IMG/VR virus record: IMGVR_UViG_2939521961_000002
DNA length: 47,124 nt
Strand: one strand, 5' to 3'
Source of the DNA: a virus
Taxonomy: Duplodnaviria; Heunggongvirae; Uroviricota; Caudoviricetes
A program made the position numbers and the translations under genes. The notes under the pieces were generated by a model, which saw only the letters and a program-made list of their open reading frames with translations, ran no database searches and was not told where the DNA came from. Shown here piece by piece: positions 3,843 to 38,709 of the stretch (its first letter is position 1; each line of letters opens with the position of its first letter).

Positions 3843-4169
3843 ATGACTAAAAATACTCGTTTTTCCCCCGAAGTCCGTCAGCGGGCGATTCGTATGGTTC
3901 TGGAAAGTCAGGATGAATATGACTCACAGTGGGCGGCAATTTGTTCCATTGCCCCAAAGATTGGCTGTACGCCGGAGACTCTGCGTGTCTGGGTTCGCCA
4001 GCATGAGCGGGATACCGGGGGCGGTGATGGTGGGCTCACCAGTGCTGAACGTCAGCGTCTGAAAGAGCTGGAACGTGAAAATCGTGAACTGCGCCGCAGT
4101 AACGATATCCTTCGCCAGGCTTCCGCTTATTTTGCGAAGGCGGAGTTCGACCGCCTCTGGAAAAAATGA
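3843..4169 (+). CDS. IS3-family transposase OrfA (HTH)
   Basis: 108 aa [30 protein letters not shown]...; leucine-zipper-like C-terminus; overlaps orfB by 4 nt at an A-rich site typical of -1 frameshifting. Confidence 0.85.
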
Positions 4170-5056
4170 TGCCACTGCTGGATAAGCTGCGTGAGCAGTA
4201 CGGGGTCGGACCGGTATGCAGCGAACTGCATATTGCCCCGTCAACGTATTACCATTGTCAGCAACAGCGACATCATCCGGATAAACGCAGTGCCCGTGCG
4301 CAGCACGATGACTGGCTGAAGAAAGAGATACAGCGCGTATACGATGAAAATCACCAGGTATACGGTGTGCGTAAAGTCTGGCGTCAGTTGTTACGGGAAG
4401 GTATCAGAGTGGCCAGATGCACTGTGGCACGTCTCATGGCAGTTATGGGACTTGCCGGTGTTCTCCGGGGTAAAAAGGTCCGCACTACCGTCAGCCGGAA
4501 AGCCGTTGCCGCATGCGACCGCGTAAACCGTCAGTTCGTGGCAGAACGTCCAGACCAGTTGTGGGTGGCTGATTTTACCTGGGTAAGCACATGGCAGGGC
4601 TTCGTTTATGTGGCGTTCATCATTGATGTGTTCGCCGGATACATCGTGGGATGGCAGGTCTCATCATCCATGGAAACAACATTCGTGCTGGATGCACTGG
4701 AGCAGGCGTTGTGGGCCCGTCGGCCGTCCGGCACAATCCATCACAGTGATAAAGGTTCTCAGTATGTATCGCTGGCCTACACGCAGCGGCTTAAGGAAGC
4801 CGGATTACTGGCATCAACAGGGAGTACTGGCGACTCGTATGACAACGCGATGGCTGAGAGCATCAATGGTCTTTACAAAGCGGAGGTAATACACCGTAAT
4901 AGCTGGAAAAACCGGACAGAAGTGGAACTGGCCACACTAACGTGGGTGGACTGGTATAACAATCGACGATTGCTGGAAAGGCTGGGCCATATTCCTCCGG
5001 CAGAAGCAGAAAAAGCTTATTATGCTTCCATCGGAAATAATGATCTGGCAGCCTGA
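4166..5056 (+). CDS. IS3-family transposase OrfB (DDE integrase core)
   Basis: 296 aa with DDE-type catalytic core (…WVADFT…HSDKGSQY…YDNAMAES…). Confidence 0.85.
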
Positions 5057-9071: not shown

Positions 9072-10001
9072 ATGGCAAACACTGCTGAGATATTCAATTT
9101 TCCAGTGCCGGATGCGGCACAAAAGGAGCCGCGCGTGGCAGATCTCGATGATGGTTATACGCGCATTGCAAATGAGTTGCTGGAAGCTGTAATGCTGGCC
9201 GGATTAACACAGCACCAGCTTCTGGTCTTCCTGGCTGTCATGCGCAAAACATATGGCTTTAATAAAAAACTGGACTGGGTGAGCAACGAGCAACTTTCCG
9301 AGTTGACCGGGATATTGCCGCACAAGTGTTCTGCTGCAAAAAGTGTTCTGGTAAAGCGTGGGATTTTTATTCAGAGCGGGCGGAATATCGGCATTAATAA
9401 TGTGGTCAGTGAATGGTCAACATTACCCGAATCAGGTAAGAAAAATAAAGTTTACCTGAAAGAGGTAAATTTACCTGAATCAGGTAAGAAAAGTTTACCC
9501 AAATCAGGTAAAGGCACTTACCCGAATCAGGTAAACACAAAAGACAAACTAACAAAAGACAATATAAAACCTTATTCGTCCGAGAATTCTGGCGAATCCT
9601 CTGACCTGCCAGAAAACGACCTTCCTGTGGTGAAAGCGGATGCTGCGATTCAGAGCGGCAGCAAGTGGGGGACAGCAGAAGACCTGACCGCCGCAGAGTG
9701 GATGTTTGACATGGTGAAGACCATCGCGCCATCAGCCAGAAAACCGAATTTTGCAGGGTGGGCTAACGATATCCGTCTGATGCGTGAACGTGATGGACGT
9801 AACCACCGCGACATGTGTGTACTGTTCCGCTGGGCCTGCCAGGACAACTTCTGGTCCGGTAACGTGCTGAGTCCGGCCAAACTCCGCGACAAGTGGACCC
9901 AGCTCGAAATCAACCGGAACAAGCAACAGGCTGGCGTGACAGTCGGCAAACCAAAACTCGACCTGACAAACACAGACTGGATTTACGGGGTGGATCTATG
10001 A
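9072..10001 (+). CDS. O: Replication initiator O
   Basis: Start at ATG after GGGAGG (MANTAEIFNFPVPD...); N-terminal similarity to lambda O (…VADLDDGY…RKTYG…NK…); iterons embedded mid-gene; stop overlaps P start. Confidence 0.85.
   Translation: MANTAEIFNFPVPDAAQKEPRVADLDDGYTRIANELLEAVMLAGLTQHQLLVFLAVMRKTYGFNKKLDWVSNEQLSELTGILPHKCSAAKSVLVKRGIFIQSGRNIGINNVVSEWSTLPESGKKNKVYLKEVNLPESGKKSLPKSGKGTYPNQVNTKDKLTKDNIKPYSSENSGESSDLPENDLPVVKADAAIQSGSKWGTAEDLTAAEWMFDMVKTIAPSARKPNFAGWANDIRLMRERDGRNHRDMCVLFRWACQDNFWSGNVLSPAKLRDKWTQLEINRNKQQAGVTVGKPKLDLTNTDWIYGVDL
9421..9537. repeat. Replication origin iterons (ori) within O
   Basis: Five ~19-bp palindromic repeats of form TTACC-N8-9-GGTAA (TTACCCGAATCAGGTAAG, TTTACCTGAAAGAGGTAAA, TTTACCTGAATCAGGTAAG, TTTACCCAAATCAGGTAAA, CTTACCCGAATCAGGTAAA) followed by an A-rich tract. 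Confidence 0.7.
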
Positions 10002-10699
10002 AAAACATCGCCGCACAGATGATTAACTTTGACCGTGAGCAGATGCGTCGGATCGCCAACAACATGCCGGAACAGTACGACGAAAAGCCGCAGGTACAGC
10101 AGGTAGCGCAGATAATCAACGGTGTATTCAGCCAGTTACTGGCAACTTTCCCGGCGAGCCTGGCTAATCGTGACCAGAACGAACTGAACGAAATCCGCCG
10201 CCAGTGGGTTCTGGCTTTCCGGGAAAACGGGATCACCACGATGGAACAGGTGAGCGCCGGAATGCGTGTTGCCCGTCGGCAGAATAGACCATTTCTGCCA
10301 TCACCCGGGCAGTTTGTTGCATGGTGCCGGGAAGAAGCATCCGTTAACGCCGGGCTGCCAAACGTCAGCGAGCTGGTTGATATGGTTTACGAGTATTGCC
10401 GGAAGCGTGGCCTGTATCCGGATGCAGAGTCTTATCCGTGGAAATCGAACGCGCATTACTGGTTGGTTACCAACCTGTACCAGAACATGCGGGCCAATGC
10501 GCTGACTGACGCGGAATTACGGCGCAAGGCTGCCGATGAACTGACCTGTATGACAGCGCGAATTAACCGTGGTGAGACGATACCTGAACCAGTAAAACAA
10601 CTTCCTGTTATGGGCGGTAGACCTCTAAATCGTGCACAGGCTCTGGCGAAGATCGCAGAAATCAAAGCTAAGTTTGGGCTGAAAGGAGCAAGTGTATGA
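9998..10699 (+). CDS. P: Replication protein P (DnaB helicase loader)
   Basis: 233 aa from ATG overlapping O stop; matches lambda P from memory (MKNIAAQMINFDREQMRRIANNMPEQYDEKPQVQQ...KFGLKGASV). Confidence 0.95.
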   Translation: MKNIAAQMINFDREQMRRIANNMPEQYDEKPQVQQVAQIINGVFSQLLATFPASLANRDQNELNEIRRQWVLAFRENGITTMEQVSAGMRVARRQNRPFLPSPGQFVAWCREEASVNAGLPNVSELVDMVYEYCRKRGLYPDAESYPWKSNAHYWLVTNLYQNMRANALTDAELRRKAADELTCMTARINRGETIPEPVKQLPVMGGRPLNRAQALAKIAEIKAKFGLKGASV

Positions 10700-10898: not shown

Positions 10899-10903
10899 TT
10901 TAA

Positions 10904-11251
10904 TTAAAGCTCAGAAAGCTGTGATAATATTTTTTCTGGAGTGGTTTCGTTGGAAATGCTAAATAATACAGCACCTTTGACTGATTCATCTCTCATTTCA
11001 ATTTCACATGAATTATGGTTGTATGAGATTGCATAATTTTTTAATGTTCTTTCGCTTTGCCACCACACCATATTTGCAAGACTTCCGTTATACGTTCTTA
11101 TCTCGATTGATCCGGGCAGGGCTTTCCAGATAACACCTCCTAGCAATGTAAGAGCGGCTGCACCAACATTTTTTGCATGATGGTTAGAACGTTCCATTAC
11201 CCCTTCAGCATAACGATGAAGAATCTCTATGTCAGTCGCTTTGATAGTCAT
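10904..11251 (-). CDS. Hypothetical orphan protein (115 aa) in AT-rich island
   Basis: Reverse-oriented relative to replication genes; about 30% GC on hand count; candidate extended -10 (TGcTATATT) about 50 nt upstream on the minus strand; no family recognised. Confidence 0.5.
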   Translation of the reverse strand: MTIKATDIEILHRYAEGVMERSNHHAKNVGAAALTLLGGVIWKALPGSIEIRTYNGSLANMVWWQSERTLKNYAISYNHNSCEIEMRDESVKGAVLFSISNETTPEKILSQLSEL

Positions 11252-11480
11252 GTTATTTCCATGTAATTGCTGTGTGAAACGTAGTGTTAGTTAGGTGTTA
11301 GCAGAATATAGCATCAAAGTCGAAACCGGTAGAAAAAATATTGGTGATTATTTCGCTGCATTTGGAACTGGAACAACAATGATTATTAGCATGATTGCTT
11401 TTTCCAGTCATAAGAATGAGTCGTGTTAATTTTTTCTATTCAATAGGAAATTATCATGTCATCAGAATATGAACAACTAC

Positions 11481-11572
11481 GGTGACTTCTGCGCTAAACG
11501 GGGACGTTTATGCGCACATACAATCCAAACTCTCTTCTCCCTCCACAGATGCAGAAATACACCTGCGATTTT
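11481..11572 (+). repeat. 92-bp direct repeat, copy 1 (5' part of a small ORF)
   Basis: GGTGACTTCTGCGCTAAACGGGGACGTTTATGCGCACATACAATC...CACCTGCGATTTT; about 5 mismatches with copy 2 at 13803..13894. Confidence 0.85.
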
Positions 11573-11650
11573 TTGCATTCGGTGTTTTTGGCAGCCAAGA
11601 ACAGGGAGTCTCTGTTTGTCTGGCGGCTAAAGGTGATATGGAAATCGTGA
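11510..11650 (+). CDS. Small ORF (46 aa) initiated inside repeat copy 1
   Basis: ATG 6 nt after [26 protein letters not shown]...; N-terminal 21 codons shared with the small ORF at 13832. Confidence 0.3.
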
Positions 11651-11729
11651 TGTCTTAGCCTAAAGTAGTTGCAACAGTTGGAGCGATTATGGTGGTAGTA
11701 GTGATCATCGCGCCCCCCATATGCAAGGG

Positions 11730-11759
11730 TTGACGACATTATTTATCCGGCGCTATATT
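11730..11759 (+). promoter_or_regulatory. Putative sigma70 promoter upstream of the Bro-N gene
   Basis: TTGACG (11730..11735), 17-18 nt spacer, CTATAT/TATATT (11753..11759). Confidence 0.4.
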
Positions 11760-11819
11760 CTGTGCGTTGCCGCAAAATCGGCACACGGGATTGGCGTCCC
11801 GGACATCAAAACGACGCAT

Positions 11820-11840
11820 AACCGCGTTCGCGGTTTTTTT
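11820..11840 (+). terminator. Hairpin plus T7 run in the leader (possible attenuator)
   Basis: AACCGC-GTTC-GCGGTT followed by TTTTTTT, about 55 nt downstream of the putative promoter and upstream of the Bro-N start. Confidence 0.35.
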
Positions 11841-12003
11841 ATGCGCAGTGCACGTCTACACAAAAATTATGGTGGGCTGTGTGAGGGCTTCTTCGGAAGC
11901 GCCGGATTTCGTTTTGACCGGTTACGCCAACCTTGCACAGTCCACCACCAGTCGATTGGCGTCGTCGGTGGTGATAGCTCAAATTCAAAACGAGATTATC
12001 GCT

Positions 12004-12612
12004 ATGGTCACTCAGCTCGCATTCCGCGATGTAAAATTCACTCCTATAAATCACAACAACCAGATCTGGTTTACCAGCAAAGAATTGGCGGCAGCATTAA
12101 AATATGCCAGCACCAAAGCAGTAACCGACATCTACAACAAAAATATTGATGAGTTTACTGACGGAATGTCTCAGGTCGTCGAATCAACGACCTCAGGAAA
12201 TTATCGTAAGAAGACTCGCATTTTCTCCCTCCGTGGCGCCCATCTGATCGCCATGTTCGCCCGCACTCCTGTGGCCAAAGAATTCCGCCGCTGGGTGCTG
12301 GATATTCTCGATCGAGAAATTCAACAATCCCCAATCACAAAACAATTCACTGATAACGAACTTTGCACACTTGCTTGGTTATGGCGGGCAAGTGACACAA
12401 TGTTAACCGCTTGCCAAAACGTCACTCCGCTTCTTCAGGTAGCAGAACACCGCGAAGCCGGTCGCTTCACTTCAATCGAACAAGAATATCCCCGGATACT
12501 CAATAAGGCACAGGCAATCCTTGCCAGAGAAACGGCACATGTAAAATTCCGGCCGTGGCAGGATGATAAGTGGAGTCGAGTATTGACGCATTTACGTTCT
12601 GAACGGCTGTAA
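12004..12612 (+). CDS. Bro-N domain protein (antirepressor-like)
   Basis: N-terminus MVTQLAFRDVKFTPINHNNQIWFTSKELAAALKYASTKAVTD...RIFSLRGAHLIAMFARTPVAKEFRRWVLDIL fits the Bro-N pattern; start uncertain (in-frame ORF extends to 11767). Confidence 0.6.
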   Translation: MVTQLAFRDVKFTPINHNNQIWFTSKELAAALKYASTKAVTDIYNKNIDEFTDGMSQVVESTTSGNYRKKTRIFSLRGAHLIAMFARTPVAKEFRRWVLDILDREIQQSPITKQFTDNELCTLAWLWRASDTMLTACQNVTPLLQVAEHREAGRFTSIEQEYPRILNKAQAILARETAHVKFRPWQDDKWSRVLTHLRSERL

Positions 12613-12911
12613 TAAAGTTGCGGGAGAGAAATGCCGCTAGTATTTTGTAATTAATTGAATGCTGACGGTTTAATGAGAAGTCAAGAACACTACTTGTACT
12701 ATAATCGTTCGATGTTAGTGAGGGTTTGATGCAAAAAATGAAGTGATTGACCCTAAATTTGCGCGATCAGCGACAGATTGTACACCGAGATCCTGTGGGC
12801 TGGAATTTGCAGAGAAATACCGAAAATGATATCCAATATTGTTTTCAGTTCCTACATCATACCTGATAAGGGTATAATCATAAAAATTAGGATAATTCAA
12901 GTTATAATTGT

Positions 12912-13328
12912 ATGAATAAAAACGACCTTGAAGCATTATCTGACACTAGGCTTAATGAGGCCAAATGCTTGCTTGATCATGGCTTTTTTCATGGTGCATA
13001 TTATCTTTGTGGGTATGCAGTTGAATGTGCATTGAAGGCCTGTATTGCCAAGTCATTTTTACAACATGAGTTTCCAAACAAAAAAGTCGTAAATGATTCA
13101 TATACTCATGATTTGTCGCAACTTCTCAAAATTGCCAACTTACATCAAATTTTGATTGCTGACGCAAAAAATGATGTTTCGTTGGAGATTAACTGGTCGG
13201 TCGTTAAAGACTGGAGCGAGCAATTTAGATACGACAATAACATAAGTAAAGCTATGGCCGAACAATTGTTTGATGCTGTAGGTGACCAAAATTCTGGAGT
13301 TTTGAAATGGGTAAAAGCACACTGGTAA
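12912..13328 (+). CDS. HEPN-like domain protein (138 aa)
   Basis: Helix GAYYLCGYAVECALKACIAK plus THDLSQLL and FRYDNN resemble conserved HEPN helices; about 32-37% GC; stop overlaps the next ORF. Confidence 0.5.
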   Translation: MNKNDLEALSDTRLNEAKCLLDHGFFHGAYYLCGYAVECALKACIAKSFLQHEFPNKKVVNDSYTHDLSQLLKIANLHQILIADAKNDVSLEINWSVVKDWSEQFRYDNNISKAMAEQLFDAVGDQNSGVLKWVKAHW

Positions 13329-13708
13329 TCGGCAGAGAGTTGACAAAAGATATGGAATTCTCAGGTCAATTTTTGTTAAAAAAACTCAAGTTACAGAATT
13401 TAACTATTGATGCTGCAATGTGGTTTTATTACCCAGATCTATCTTGGAGATATATTTTAGTTATCAGTGACTTCTCAGAACGTGGGCCGGCAGAAATATA
13501 TAGAAAAATCAGTGAGATAAATAGAAATAGCATATCAAAAAAGTATAAGCCGATACCATTAGAAGCAATTGAGGCTAAGGGGGATTCAGCTTTTGTTTAT
13601 AAAATGTTAAAAGGATTTGCTAGAGTCAACGATGGTAAAGTTCGCGTTTCTAATTCTATGGTAAATGGTTTAGAAATCGTTGACTGTCTGATCTATGAGT
13701 TAAAATAA
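13307..13708 (+). CDS. Hypothetical protein (133 aa) translationally coupled to the HEPN-like gene
   Basis: ATG 8 nt after GGAG, overlapping the upstream ORF by 22 nt; no nucleotidyltransferase GS/DxD motif seen; no family recognised. Confidence 0.5.
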   Translation: MGKSTLVIGRELTKDMEFSGQFLLKKLKLQNLTIDAAMWFYYPDLSWRYILVISDFSERGPAEIYRKISEINRNSISKKYKPIPLEAIEAKGDSAFVYKMLKGFARVNDGKVRVSNSMVNGLEIVDCLIYELK

Positions 13709-13802
13709 GAAATCTCTTGCTGGGTATCATTATTGTTTAAATGACTTTTGATTTTCAATAATCAACTTGTCATAATTAAGTCACCGGAGTTTGAACTCCT
13801 CC

Positions 13803-13894
13803 GGTGACTTCTGCGCTAAACGGGGACGTTTATGCGCACATACAATCTAAACTATCTTCTCCCGTCACAGATGCAGAAATGCACCTGCGATTTT
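13803..13894 (+). repeat. 92-bp direct repeat, copy 2 (5' part of the small ORF preceding ybcN/ninB)
   Basis: Matches 11481..11572 with about 5 mismatches; preceded by a 10-bp-stem hairpin whose 3' arm lies inside the repeat. Confidence 0.85.
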
Positions 13895-13933
13895 CTTTAT
13901 CCAGCGTTTGACCTCTGCGGAGGTGAAGCGTGA
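13832..13933 (+). CDS. Small ORF (33 aa) coupled to ybcN/ninB
   Basis: ATG after GGGGA; stop TGA overlaps the GTG start of the next gene (GTGA). Confidence 0.3.
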
Positions 13934-14385
13934 ACCTCCCACAAGACGGCATCAAACTGCATCGCGGTAACTTCACCGCTATCGGTCAGCAGCTCCAGCC
14001 TTATTTGGAAGACGGCAAGTGCTTTCGCATGGTGCTTAAACCGTGGCGCGAGAGACGCAGTCTTTCCCAGAATGCACTTAGCCACATGTGGTACAGCGAA
14101 ATCAGTGAATACCTTATCCGCAGGGGGAAATCGTTCGCTACCGCAGCATGGGTAAAAGATGCTCTCAAACACACATACCTCGGTTATGAAACCAAGGACC
14201 TGGTTGATGTCGTAACCGGTGAAATCACTACTATCCAGTCGTTACGCCATACCTCCGATCTTGATACCGGAGAGATGTATGTCTTCCTGTGTAAGGTTGA
14301 AGCCTGGGCGATGAATATTGGCTGCCACCTGACTATTCCGCAGAGCTGCGAGTTCCAGCTGCTGCGCGACAAGCAGGAGGCGTAA
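13930..14385 (+). CDS. ybcN: NinB-family protein (DLP12 YbcN-like)
   Basis: 151 aa, GTG start after [20 protein letters not shown] motif resembles the NinB S-L-x-Q-N region; position and size match DLP12 ybcN. Confidence 0.65.
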
Positions 14386-14555
14386 TGGCTACACCGCTTA
14401 TTCGTGTCATGAACGGACACATCTACAGAGTACCAAATCGTCGTAAGCGTAAGCCTGAGCTAAAACCATCCGAAATACCAACACTGCTCGGATATACCGC
14501 CAGCCTGGTTGATAAAAAATGGTTGCGACTGGCAGCAAGGAGGAATCATGGCTGA
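14385..14555 (+). CDS. ninE: NinE-family small protein
   Basis: 56 aa ([29 protein letters not shown]...); ATG overlaps upstream stop (TAATG); basic, NinE-like. Confidence 0.55.
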   Translation: MATPLIRVMNGHIYRVPNRRKRKPELKPSEIPTLLGYTASLVDKKWLRLAARRNHG

Positions 14556-19498: not shown

Positions 19499-20389
19499 TC
19501 AGGCTGCCAGATCATCGTTTCCGATGGAAGCATAATAAGCTTTTTCTGCTTCTGCCGGAGGAGTATGGCCCAGCCTTCCCAGCAATCGTCGATTGTTATA
19601 CCAGTCCACCCACGTTAGTGTGGCCAGTTCCACTTCTGCACGGTTTTTCCAGCTCTTACGGTGTATTACCTCCGCTTTGTAAAGACCATTGATGCTCTCA
19701 GCCATCGCGTTGTCATACGAGTCGCCTGTACTCCCTGTTGATGCCAGTAATCCGGCTTCTTTTAGTCGCTCCGTATAGGCCAGTGACACATACTGAGAGC
19801 CTTTATCGCTGTAATGGATGGTGCCAGACGGACGACGGGCCCACAACGCCTGCTCCAGCGCATCCAGCACGAATGTCGTTTCCATAGACGATGAGACCCG
19901 CCCCCCCACGATGTATCCGGCAAACACATCAATGATAAACGCCACATAGACGAAGCCCTGCCATGTGCTGACGTAAGTAAAATCAGCCACCCACAGCTGG
20001 TCAGGACGTTCTGCCACGAACTGACGGTTTACGCGGTCACCTGTGGCAACGGTTTTCCGGCTGACGGTAGTGCGGACCTTTTTACCCCGGAGAACACCGG
20101 CAAGTCCCATAACCGCCATGAGGCGCGCCACTGTACATCTGGCCACCCTGATTCCTTCCCGTAACAACTGACGCCAGACTTTACGCACACCGTACACCTG
20201 ATGATTTTCATCGTATACGCGCTGTATCTCTCTCTTCAGCCAGTCATCGTGCTGCGCACGGGCACTGCGTTTATCCGGATGATGTCGCTGTTGCTGACAA
20301 TGGTAATACGTTGACGGGGCAATATGCAGTTCGCTGCATACCGGTCCGACCCCGTACTGCTCACGCAGCTTATCCAGCAGTGGCATCAT
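19499..20389 (-). CDS. IS3-family transposase OrfB, copy 2
   Basis: 296 aa; near-identical to 4166..5056 product with several substitutions. Confidence 0.85.
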
Positions 20390-20712
20390 TTTTTCCAGAG
20401 GCGGTCGAACTCCGCCTTCGCAAAATAAGCGGAAGCCTGGCGAAGGATATCGTTACTGCGGCGCAGTTCACGATTTTCACGTTCCAGCTCTTTCAGACGC
20501 TGACGTTCAGCGCTGGTGAGCCCACCATCACCGCCCCCGGTATCCCGCTCATGCTGGCGAACCCAGACACGCAGGGTCTCCGGCGTACAGCCAATCTTTG
20601 GGGCAATGGAACAAATTGCCGCCCACTGTGAGTCATATTCATCCTGACTTTCCAGAACCATACGAATCGCCCGCTGACGGACTTCGGGGGAAAAACGAGT
20701 ATTTTTAGTCAT
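20386..20712 (-). CDS. IS3-family transposase OrfA, copy 2
   Basis: 108 aa identical in length to 3843..4169 product. Confidence 0.85.
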
Positions 20713-38058: not shown

Positions 38059-38709
38059 ATGACACAGACAGAATCAGCGATTCTGGCGCACGCCCGGCGA
38101 TGTGCGCCAGCGGAGTCGTGCGGCTTCGTGGTAAGCACGCCGGAGGGGGAAAGATATTTCCCCTGCGTGAATATCTCCGGTGAGCCGGAGGCGTATTTCC
38201 GTATGTCGCCGGAAGACTGGCTGCAGGCAGAAATGCAGGGGGAGATTGTGGCGCTGGTCCACAGCCACCCCGGTGGTCTGCCCTGGCTGAGTGAGGCCGA
38301 CCGGCGGCTGCAGGTGCAGAGTGATTTGCCGTGGTGGCTGGTCTGCCGGGGTGAGATTCATAAGTTCCGCTGTGTGCCGCATCTCACCGGGCGGCGCTTT
38401 GAGCACGGTGTGACGGACTGTTACACACTGTTCCGGGATGCTTATCATCTGGCGGAGATTGAGATGCCGGATTTTGTGCGTGAGGATGACTGGTGGCGTA
38501 ACGGTCAGAATCTCTATCTGGATAATCTGGAGGCCACAGGGCTGTATCAGGTGCCGTTGTCAGCGGCGCAGCCGGGCGATGTGCTGCTGTGCTGTTTTGG
38601 TTCATCGGTGCCGAATCACGCCGCTATTTACTGTGGTGACGGCGAGCTGCTGCACCATATTCCTGAACAACTGAGTAAACGGGAGAGGTATACCGACAAA
38701 TGGCAGTGA
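38059..38709 (+). CDS. K: Tail tip assembly protein K (JAB/MPN and NlpC/P60-like)
   Basis: 216 aa MTQTESAILAHARRCAPAESCGFVVSTPEGERYF... matches lambda gpK. Confidence 0.9.
   Translation: MTQTESAILAHARRCAPAESCGFVVSTPEGERYFPCVNISGEPEAYFRMSPEDWLQAEMQGEIVALVHSHPGGLPWLSEADRRLQVQSDLPWWLVCRGEIHKFRCVPHLTGRRFEHGVTDCYTLFRDAYHLAEIEMPDFVREDDWWRNGQNLYLDNLEATGLYQVPLSAAQPGDVLLCCFGSSVPNHAAIYCGDGELLHHIPEQLSKRERYTDKWQ

Follow-up and report, generated by a model that had tools for sequence, protein, structure and literature searches.

A duplicated ylcH leader flanks composite accessory cargo between genes P and ybcN of a lambdoid phage

Introduction

Mosaic exchange among lambdoid phages proceeds by relaxed homologous recombination, which leaves variable DNA between conserved segments and places the junctions in short, diverged homology; phage Red recombination tolerates 12% divergence with only a ~100-fold loss, and internal repeats are usually lacking in phage genomes (PMC3945230). 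Here we describe a locus of this kind in the Caudoviricetes record IMGVR_UViG_2939521961_000002, a stretch of 47,124 nucleotides that was analysed at its full length (the window). The element in question is the leader of the small gene ylcH (also orf33), which occurs twice, as imperfect direct repeats, between the replication gene P and ybcN. The sequence that anchors the exchange is also found in the defective prophage DLP12, as expected of lambdoid mosaicism. Unlike the usual phage mosaic, the homology is present twice in one genome, so that the cargo between the copies would be deletable from within that genome. We consider it probable that a conserved promoter-leader has served as a homology anchor and has been duplicated around composite, swappable cargo that recombination could delete.

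The closest described counterparts of the repeated unit are those of phage 82 and DLP12. In the phage 82 sequence, the depositors marked putative −35 and −10 elements, a ribosome-binding site and an orf33 that overlaps orf151, all as in the right copy of the window, and labelled an inverted repeat, which the right copy likewise has, a 'possible regulator-binding site' (GenBank X92588, Mahdi et al. 1996). We read that inverted repeat as RNA structure. The ylcH-ybcN region of DLP12 in Escherichia coli K-12 has the same leader unit and a 33-amino-acid (aa) open reading frame (ORF), ylcH, before ybcN. Both phage 82 and DLP12 have a single leader copy and lack the isrK-ant and HEPN cargo, unlike the window.

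The cargo also has described relatives. The isrK-orf45-anrP region of Gifsy-1 has the order that is seen in the window, namely isrK, C4 (STnc1160), a 45-codon frame and an antirepressor-type gene; short IsrK acts in Gifsy-1 as a translational activator of the read-through transcript, and the antirepressor sets off induction (PMC4825925). The Gifsy-1 orf45 is a separate, coupled ORF and its module lies downstream of a Q-like gene, whereas in the window the 45 codons continue in frame into the antirepressor gene, and the predicted module sits between P and ybcN. The order of C4 and antirepressor can likewise be likened to the c4-icd-ant order of the immI region of P1 and P7. In toxin-antitoxin pairs of the HEPN-MNT (minimal nucleotidyltransferase) type, MNT is the upstream gene and HEPN the downstream one. 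The HEPN gene of the window and its neighbour resemble such pairs (e.g., SO_3166/SO_3165, PDB 5yep) in combining a HEPN protein with a small protein whose predicted fold is nearest to MNTs, in the overlap of the two genes and in their travelling together. Their order is unlike that of HEPN-MNT pairs, with HEPN first and the partner second, and is the same in Citrobacter.

Results

The direct repeat consists of positions 11481-11572 and 13803-13894, which agree at 87 of 92 bases and differ at five, as the first-pass annotation of the window had reported. Similarity continues beyond these limits: an ungapped extension spans 162 nucleotides (nt) at 81% identity (11426-11587 and 13748-13909), with weak homology in the outer part, and blastn aligns 123 nt at 87.8% (11450-11572 and 13772-13894; E = 2e-40 against the 47-kb window). 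The longest perfect block shared by the copies is 46 nt (11480-11525), and at the left end identity fades gradually, with no sharp edge. Also as first described, each copy contains a GGGGA ribosome-binding site and 21 shared codons that begin with the ATG at 11510 or 13832, and only the right ORF is coupled to ybcN, through a GTGA overlap; the left ORF runs into unrelated sequence. A covariance model of the leader (see below) has exactly two matches in the window, both on the plus strand (Table 1), and neither this model nor blastn finds a third copy in the 47 kb, so that the repeat is not a regulatory element scattered throughout this genome, an outcome that the first-pass annotation had allowed for. 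An assembly artefact was ruled out as the source of the arrangement, which is present in 176 complete genomes.

By comparison with known phages, the repeated unit is identified as the promoter-leader of phage 82 orf33 and DLP12 ylcH, upstream of ybcN. The right copy is ~88-90% identical to phage 82 over the leader, inside a 655-nt match at 93% that includes ybcN. This gene opens the conserved ybcN-ninE-ybcO-rusA-ylcG-Q block and anchors the variable interval on the right. Divergent leaders were gathered by searching one genome per species for YbcN relatives, and the leader was found upstream of ybcN in six genera: Escherichia, Enterobacter, Citrobacter, Huaxiibacter, Siccibacter and Phytobacter. 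The promoter hexamers TTGAT(T/A) and (C/G)ATAAT are kept across genera at 17-nt spacing (Enterobacter, Citrobacter, Siccibacter and Phytobacter all retain them), and the first hairpin starts 3-7 nt past the −10 element. In the same YbcN-relative search, the leader was absent upstream of ybcN in Pantoea and Rosenbergiella, where the homologues (L150-L152 and L154) directly follow another gene without a structured leader; the leader is thus not an obligatory companion of ybcN. Among ~150 related loci mapped by blastn and 50 sources searched with the covariance model, a leader was found only before ybcN or before the spacer leading to isrK, and no third copy was seen. Our literature search on ylcH returned nothing specific.

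The right leader RNA is predicted to form three hairpins (Table 1). Hairpin 1 has a conserved (C)CUGAACA loop on stems that differ yet remain complementary, as in the stem alleles GUCACCGGAG/CUCCGGUGAC, GGUUGUCAG/CUGACAACC (Siccibacter) and GUCGACAGA/UCUGUUGGU. Hairpin 2 occurs as at least seven stem alleles, all of 10-12 bp with a GGGA loop; the Shine-Dalgarno (SD) sequence thus falls in the loop and next to it, and the 3′ arm contains the start codon. Hairpin 3 lies inside ylcH. A covariance model was built from eleven ungapped E. coli sequences, and 57 matches to it were aligned. In the 52 distinct sequences of this alignment, 95.8% of cells are paired, and both sides vary in 27 of the 34 pairs. 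This covariation was not reached in any of 500 shuffles, and sliding the 3′ partners gave at most nine pairs that change on both sides. Folds of the stem alleles computed independently for each sequence agree with the pairs of the model. These per-sequence folds and the covariance-model alignment were used in place of MAFFT and RNAalifold: a plain MAFFT alignment of the divergent leaders left the hairpin-2 alleles out of register, and RNAalifold on such an alignment missed hairpin 1. An RNA of the plus strand is favoured because G-U pairs are frequent in the stems. Collectively, the data suggest that the leader is a structured RNA whose pairs are kept by compensatory changes across diverged sequences.

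The likeness of the two copies could alternatively stem from the coding sequence that two paralogous small genes, ylcH and its 46-aa relative, have in common, with no function at the level of the nucleic acid. Such an origin would fit the ORFs that both copies open with the same first 21-26 codons, as well as the conservation of a C-terminal motif of YlcH across genera. The homology, however, already begins in the promoter and hairpin 1, ~50-80 nt before the start codon, the stems covary in untranslated sequence, and synonymous sites are near-invariant in leader-keeping genomes whose YbcN proteins are at 73-81% identity. We consider shared coding a very improbable account of the repeat.

Neither leader copy matched an Rfam 15 family at gathering scores or at E ≤ 1. 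Pairing of isrK or C4 RNA with either leader copy was also considered and rejected, as the duplex energies fall inside the range of shuffled controls. The complement of the hairpin-1 loop has one exact match elsewhere in the window (minus strand, 38662-38670), a count at chance level.

The left copy retains hairpins 2 and 3. Its hairpin 1 is degenerate, with a folding energy of −5.2 kcal/mol versus −20.0 kcal/mol in the right copy, and its −35/−10 region is likewise degenerate, with no promoter-like site called there by a consensus scan. The ylcH-like frame continues into an unrelated tail; its segment 11510-11587 is annotated by PGAP as an incomplete pseudogene in strains E2865 and NADC1036, and the left copies of two other loci (L072 and L030) have a stop at codon 15. 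Left copies of different phages share their own distinct 3′ continuation, which argues for one old junction. The left copy has the appearance of an ancient leader paralogue that moves together with the antirepressor (ant) module.

Alternatively, the left copy could be a working second promoter-leader that co-regulates the antirepressor module with the ybcN-rusA-Q operon, the duplication being kept for that reason. Most left copies elsewhere do keep TTGATT-17-CATAAT and all three hairpins (L072, L030, L074 and L013, at 147-152 bits), and the left-type continuation is conserved among phages. The degenerate promoter and hairpin 1 of the window speak against co-regulation, as do the stop at codon 15 in some phages, the promoter-like site that isrK has for itself downstream, and the complete isrK-C4-ant modules that are found in other contexts without a leader. 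On balance we judge this role for the duplication unlikely here, although it may apply to phages in which the left copy is intact.

The DNA between the copies is composite. In order, the left leader is followed by a ~150-nt spacer, a promoter-like site, isrK, C4, the antirepressor gene and an AT-rich HEPN pair. The 2.2 kb had been described at first pass as AT-rich, which holds for 12600-13800 (GC 32-37%); the part from 11550 to 12600 has a GC content of 46-52%, similar to the phage backbone. The two protein genes recognized at that time, with Bro-N and HEPN domains, are both borne out by Pfam, and two RNA genes that had been overlooked, isrK and C4, score above their Rfam gathering thresholds. 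A terminator scan places a terminator-like hairpin (11820-11835) followed by a T run at the isrK end, and a sub-threshold Rfam match to c4-a1b1 lies at 11753-11805. The frame of the antirepressor gene is open from an ATG at 11869, exactly 45 codons upstream of 12004, with no stop between. By definition, a moron is accessory cargo that is transcribed as a separate unit and brings along both promoter and terminator. Consensus scans give isrK a promoter-like site and a terminator-like hairpin, and give the HEPN pair none that is convincing on the plus strand. The partner of the HEPN protein is weakly predicted to have a nucleotidyltransferase-like fold; a sequence search of both proteins against solved structures returned chance-level matches only. 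The functions assigned here to the cargo are all predictions.

GC content sets the isrK-C4-ant module apart from the HEPN pair, and the two occur independently, which argues that the cargo is composite: the HEPN pair is found without ant in one locus (L086), and ant is found with eight other cargo types. The module is also present in Stx-type nin regions, where it separates ninE from ninF/ninG and has no leader close by. On these occurrences, what had been taken for one 2.2-kb cassette is better described as two independently mobile units, the isrK-C4-ant module and the HEPN pair.

Landmark sequences were mapped on the ~150 related loci (phage records, E. coli genomes and viral contigs), which are not an unbiased sample. 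A single leader without an antirepressor gene is found at 84 of them, a 3′ remnant of the antirepressor gene followed by cargo and then a leader at 25, two leaders as in the window at 15, and a complete isrK-C4-ant module with no left leader at six. Among 5426 complete E. coli genomes, ~3030 have a ybcN-type leader, most of them in single copy with an empty site; the exact arrangement of the window occurs in 176 and the spacer that follows the left leader in 304. Phage 82 and the DLP12-type PhiR68_2 exemplify the single copy with an empty site. Two copies enclose different cargo in PhiR26_1, IdasGreatGrand, NADC1036 and 24A16CRGN010, the last of which has the left flank and left leader of the window and other cargo past the antirepressor gene. 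Both kinds of relative that the first-pass annotation had proposed to look for therefore exist, and the two-copy relatives do not all have identical cargo.

Judged by this distribution, the whole interval from P to ybcN is a hotspot that comprises two slots or more. The slot between the ant 3′ end and the right leader has nine non-empty contents, including the HEPN pair, BstA, a DNA polymerase III theta-like gene, an esterase, a weakly HNH-like protein that stays under the Pfam cut-off, and several unknowns. The BstA homologue lies between an antirepressor remnant and the ylcH leader in E. coli 21AR0303 (L011, 3022-3951; PADLOC E = 3.8e-121), so that known abortive-infection genes use this slot. 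In the slot after P/ren, 25 alternatives were counted, which include PD-lambda-1/SNIPE and the combination of an AAA ATPase with RloB. Many small systems, known defences in some cases, thus replace one another at a set position whose neighbouring genes are conserved; most cargo is without known function. The insertion hotspot suggested at first pass is upheld by the empty sites and the varied cargo, while its supposed bounds are not: in most genomes the left bound of the variable slot is the ant 3′ end or P/ren and not the left repeat, and the usual limits are the ant 3′ end and the right leader. We found nothing specific in the literature on a hotspot between P/ren and ninB/ybcN.

The P gene is the left anchor of this interval, its 3′ end being 91-100% conserved among 71 related loci. 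The VCH_CASS14 gene of the window is a separate accessory gene outside the repeats, on the strand opposite to the surrounding genes, and is one of the 25 contents of the post-P slot. The position of this 'integron cassette protein' gene is held by PD-lambda-1/SNIPE or by the AAA ATPase with RloB in other phages.

The product expected from recombination between the repeats was written out (10900-11510 joined to 13833-14400) and searched for. It was found as a single uninterrupted match in two E. coli strains, NJS001 and STEC799. NJS001 has the order P, the same VCH_CASS14 gene, one leader and ybcN, and its leader is left-type at every distinguishing position before the 46-nt block and right-type after it. 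The right-type part includes variants of the window that are rare among right copies, and the YlcH accession is the same as in the two-copy strain E2865. By its sequence, the hybrid leader of NJS001 and STEC799 is the expected product of recombination between the repeats. A second chimera is the left copy of locus L013, whose 5′ half is right-type and whose 3′ half is left-type. The first-pass view of a cassette gained by recombination within a short conserved sequence thus stands with regard to exchange inside the homology, as seen in NJS001 and STEC799, and fails in that there is not one cassette.

That view had also included duplication of the target, as would occur if a transposase or site-specific recombinase had inserted the cassette and left the repeats as a target-site duplication. 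Direct repeats do flank foreign-looking, partly AT-rich DNA, and single-copy empty sites exist. Target-site duplications are, however, short and identical when made, and the copies here span 92-162 nt and have diverged by 12%; neither a transposase or integrase gene nor terminal inverted repeats lie between or beside them; the 3′ continuation shared by left copies of different phages marks one old junction; the cargo is composite; and the natural hybrid junction falls inside the homology and not at its ends. Insertion of this kind is hardly credible, and the transposition-style duplication proposed at first pass is set aside in favour of recombination through a conserved leader.

Coordinates of the features at the locus are compiled in Table 1. 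Elsewhere in the window, four to five copies of a ~22-nt repeat, TTACC(C/T)GAATCAGGTAA, lie in the O-like replication gene (9423-9539) and look like origin iterons. Two identical-scoring matches to the ALIL pseudoknot, a frameshift signal of the IS3 family, are found in opposite orientation at 4124-4240 (plus strand) and 20315-20431 (minus strand), a pairing that suggests two copies of one insertion sequence in the prophage region. Near the right window end (46883-47081, plus strand) there is a full-length Rfam IS009 match of 227.8 bits.

Table 1. Features of the P-to-ybcN interval, in positions of the window.
Feature	Position	Strand	Basis and remarks
Replication gene P	9998..10699	+	Pfam Phage_lambda_P, E = 9.9e-62; left anchor of the variable interval
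VCH_CASS14-family gene	10904..11251	-	Pfam PF18315, E = 5.7e-20; AT-rich block, GC 36-40%
Left ylcH-type leader copy	11457..11580	+	Covariance model, 127 bits; weak homology 11426-11587; hairpin 1 (degenerate) 11458-11486, hairpin 2 11491-11515, hairpin 3 11548-11579
Truncated/fused ylcH-like ORF, 46 aa	11510..11650	+	First 21-26 codons ylcH-like, then unrelated tail
Promoter-like site	11730..11759	+	TTGACG-18-TATATT, consensus match only; placed to start isrK
isrK RNA	11768..11840	+	Rfam RF01394, 64.1 bits (gathering 50)
C4 antisense RNA	11865..11952	+	Rfam RF01695, 82.5 bits (gathering 45)
Antirepressor-like gene (Bro-N + P22AR_C)	12004..12612	+	Pfam; PHROGs anti-repressor Ant families
HEPN-domain gene	12912..13328	+	Pfam PF05168, 27.8 bits (cut-off 22); PADLOC PDC-M28A, E = 1.8e-7; phrog_5737
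HEPN partner gene, 133 aa	13307..13708	+	Overlaps HEPN gene by 22 nt; predicted fold nearest minimal nucleotidyltransferases
Putative sigma-70 promoter of right leader	13748..13776	+	TTGATT 13748-13753, 17-nt spacer, CATAAT 13771-13776; promoter scan, putative in X92588
Right leader RNA	13779..13902	+	Covariance model, 146 bits; hairpin 1 13780-13808, hairpin 2 13813-13837, hairpin 3 13870-13901
ylcH / orf33 homologue, 33 aa	13832..13933	+	Phage 82 orf33 annotation; PGAP WP_072097617.1; overlaps ybcN GTG (13930) as GTGA
ybcN (orf151, Orf/NinB-like)	13930..14385	+	NCBIfam PRK09741, E = 4.3e-83; PMC4118853

Discussion

The proposed history of the locus takes in the repeat, the identity of its leader, the covariation of the hairpins, the composite cargo, the empty and alternative sites and the hybrid junction, each of which was observed. 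In the leader, a sigma-70-like promoter would drive an RNA whose 5′ end lies near hairpin 1; hairpin 2 would hold the SD sequence and start codon, and ylcH, which contains hairpin 3, would be coupled to ybcN. Constraint at the nucleotide level would keep this leader similar among otherwise mosaic phages, and for that reason it could serve as a homology anchor for recombination. An older, partly decayed upstream copy would have been joined after about codon 26 to the spacer and, beyond it, to an antirepressor module under the control of isrK and C4, and a separately acquired, AT-rich HEPN pair would occupy the variable slot that separates the antirepressor gene from the intact right leader. Homologous recombination between the copies would delete everything in between, which is possible because they are direct repeats with a 46-nt perfect block.

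Several points weigh against this account. The covariation alignment was fitted to the structure of the model itself, which favours that structure, and many of the E. coli leaders were fetched by an exact 35-mer within hairpin 2, so that the invariance of hairpin 2 in E. coli reflects ascertainment; the informative hairpin-2 alleles are those from the ybcN-based search and from two divergent E. coli copies. Support is weakest for hairpin 3, where nine of 13 pairs change on both sides and many cells are unpaired at two positions. That the right-leader promoter fires, where transcription starts, and that the hairpins control translation or stability are things that we infer. With its promoter and hairpin 1 degenerate, the left copy may do nothing in this window. 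Lastly, the direction of the event in NJS001 and STEC799 comes only from parsimony, deletion from a two-copy ancestor being more parsimonious than the reverse. With regard to expression, the rusA operon of DLP12 needs an inserted promoter to be expressed adequately (PMC4118853), which is compatible with, and not proof of, a leader that restrains expression.

The locus is a new, well-documented instance of the known mosaicism of lambdoid phages, and the structured leader RNA, of which we found no description, and the HEPN two-gene module may be new parts. A broader proposal, which we put forward tentatively, is that an undescribed RNA leader gates the ybcN-rusA-Q block in a large group of enterobacterial lambdoid phages. 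Its 5′ hairpin would present the conserved CUGAACA loop, the next would sequester both the ribosome-binding site and the start codon, and the third would lie within the ORF. Owing to its conservation, the leader would double as the fixed docking sequence of an accessory and defence hotspot, and its occasional duplication would make the cargo excisable.

One locus thus shows how lambdoid phages trade accessory and defence genes, with a constrained leader supplying the homology, and among its natural variants empty, occupied, differently occupied and recombined sites are all still to be found. The HEPN two-gene module and the other uncharacterised cargo are candidates for anti-phage activity. 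A conserved, apparently unannotated RNA structure before a recombination and antitermination operon could also help explain poor expression in cryptic prophages such as DLP12.

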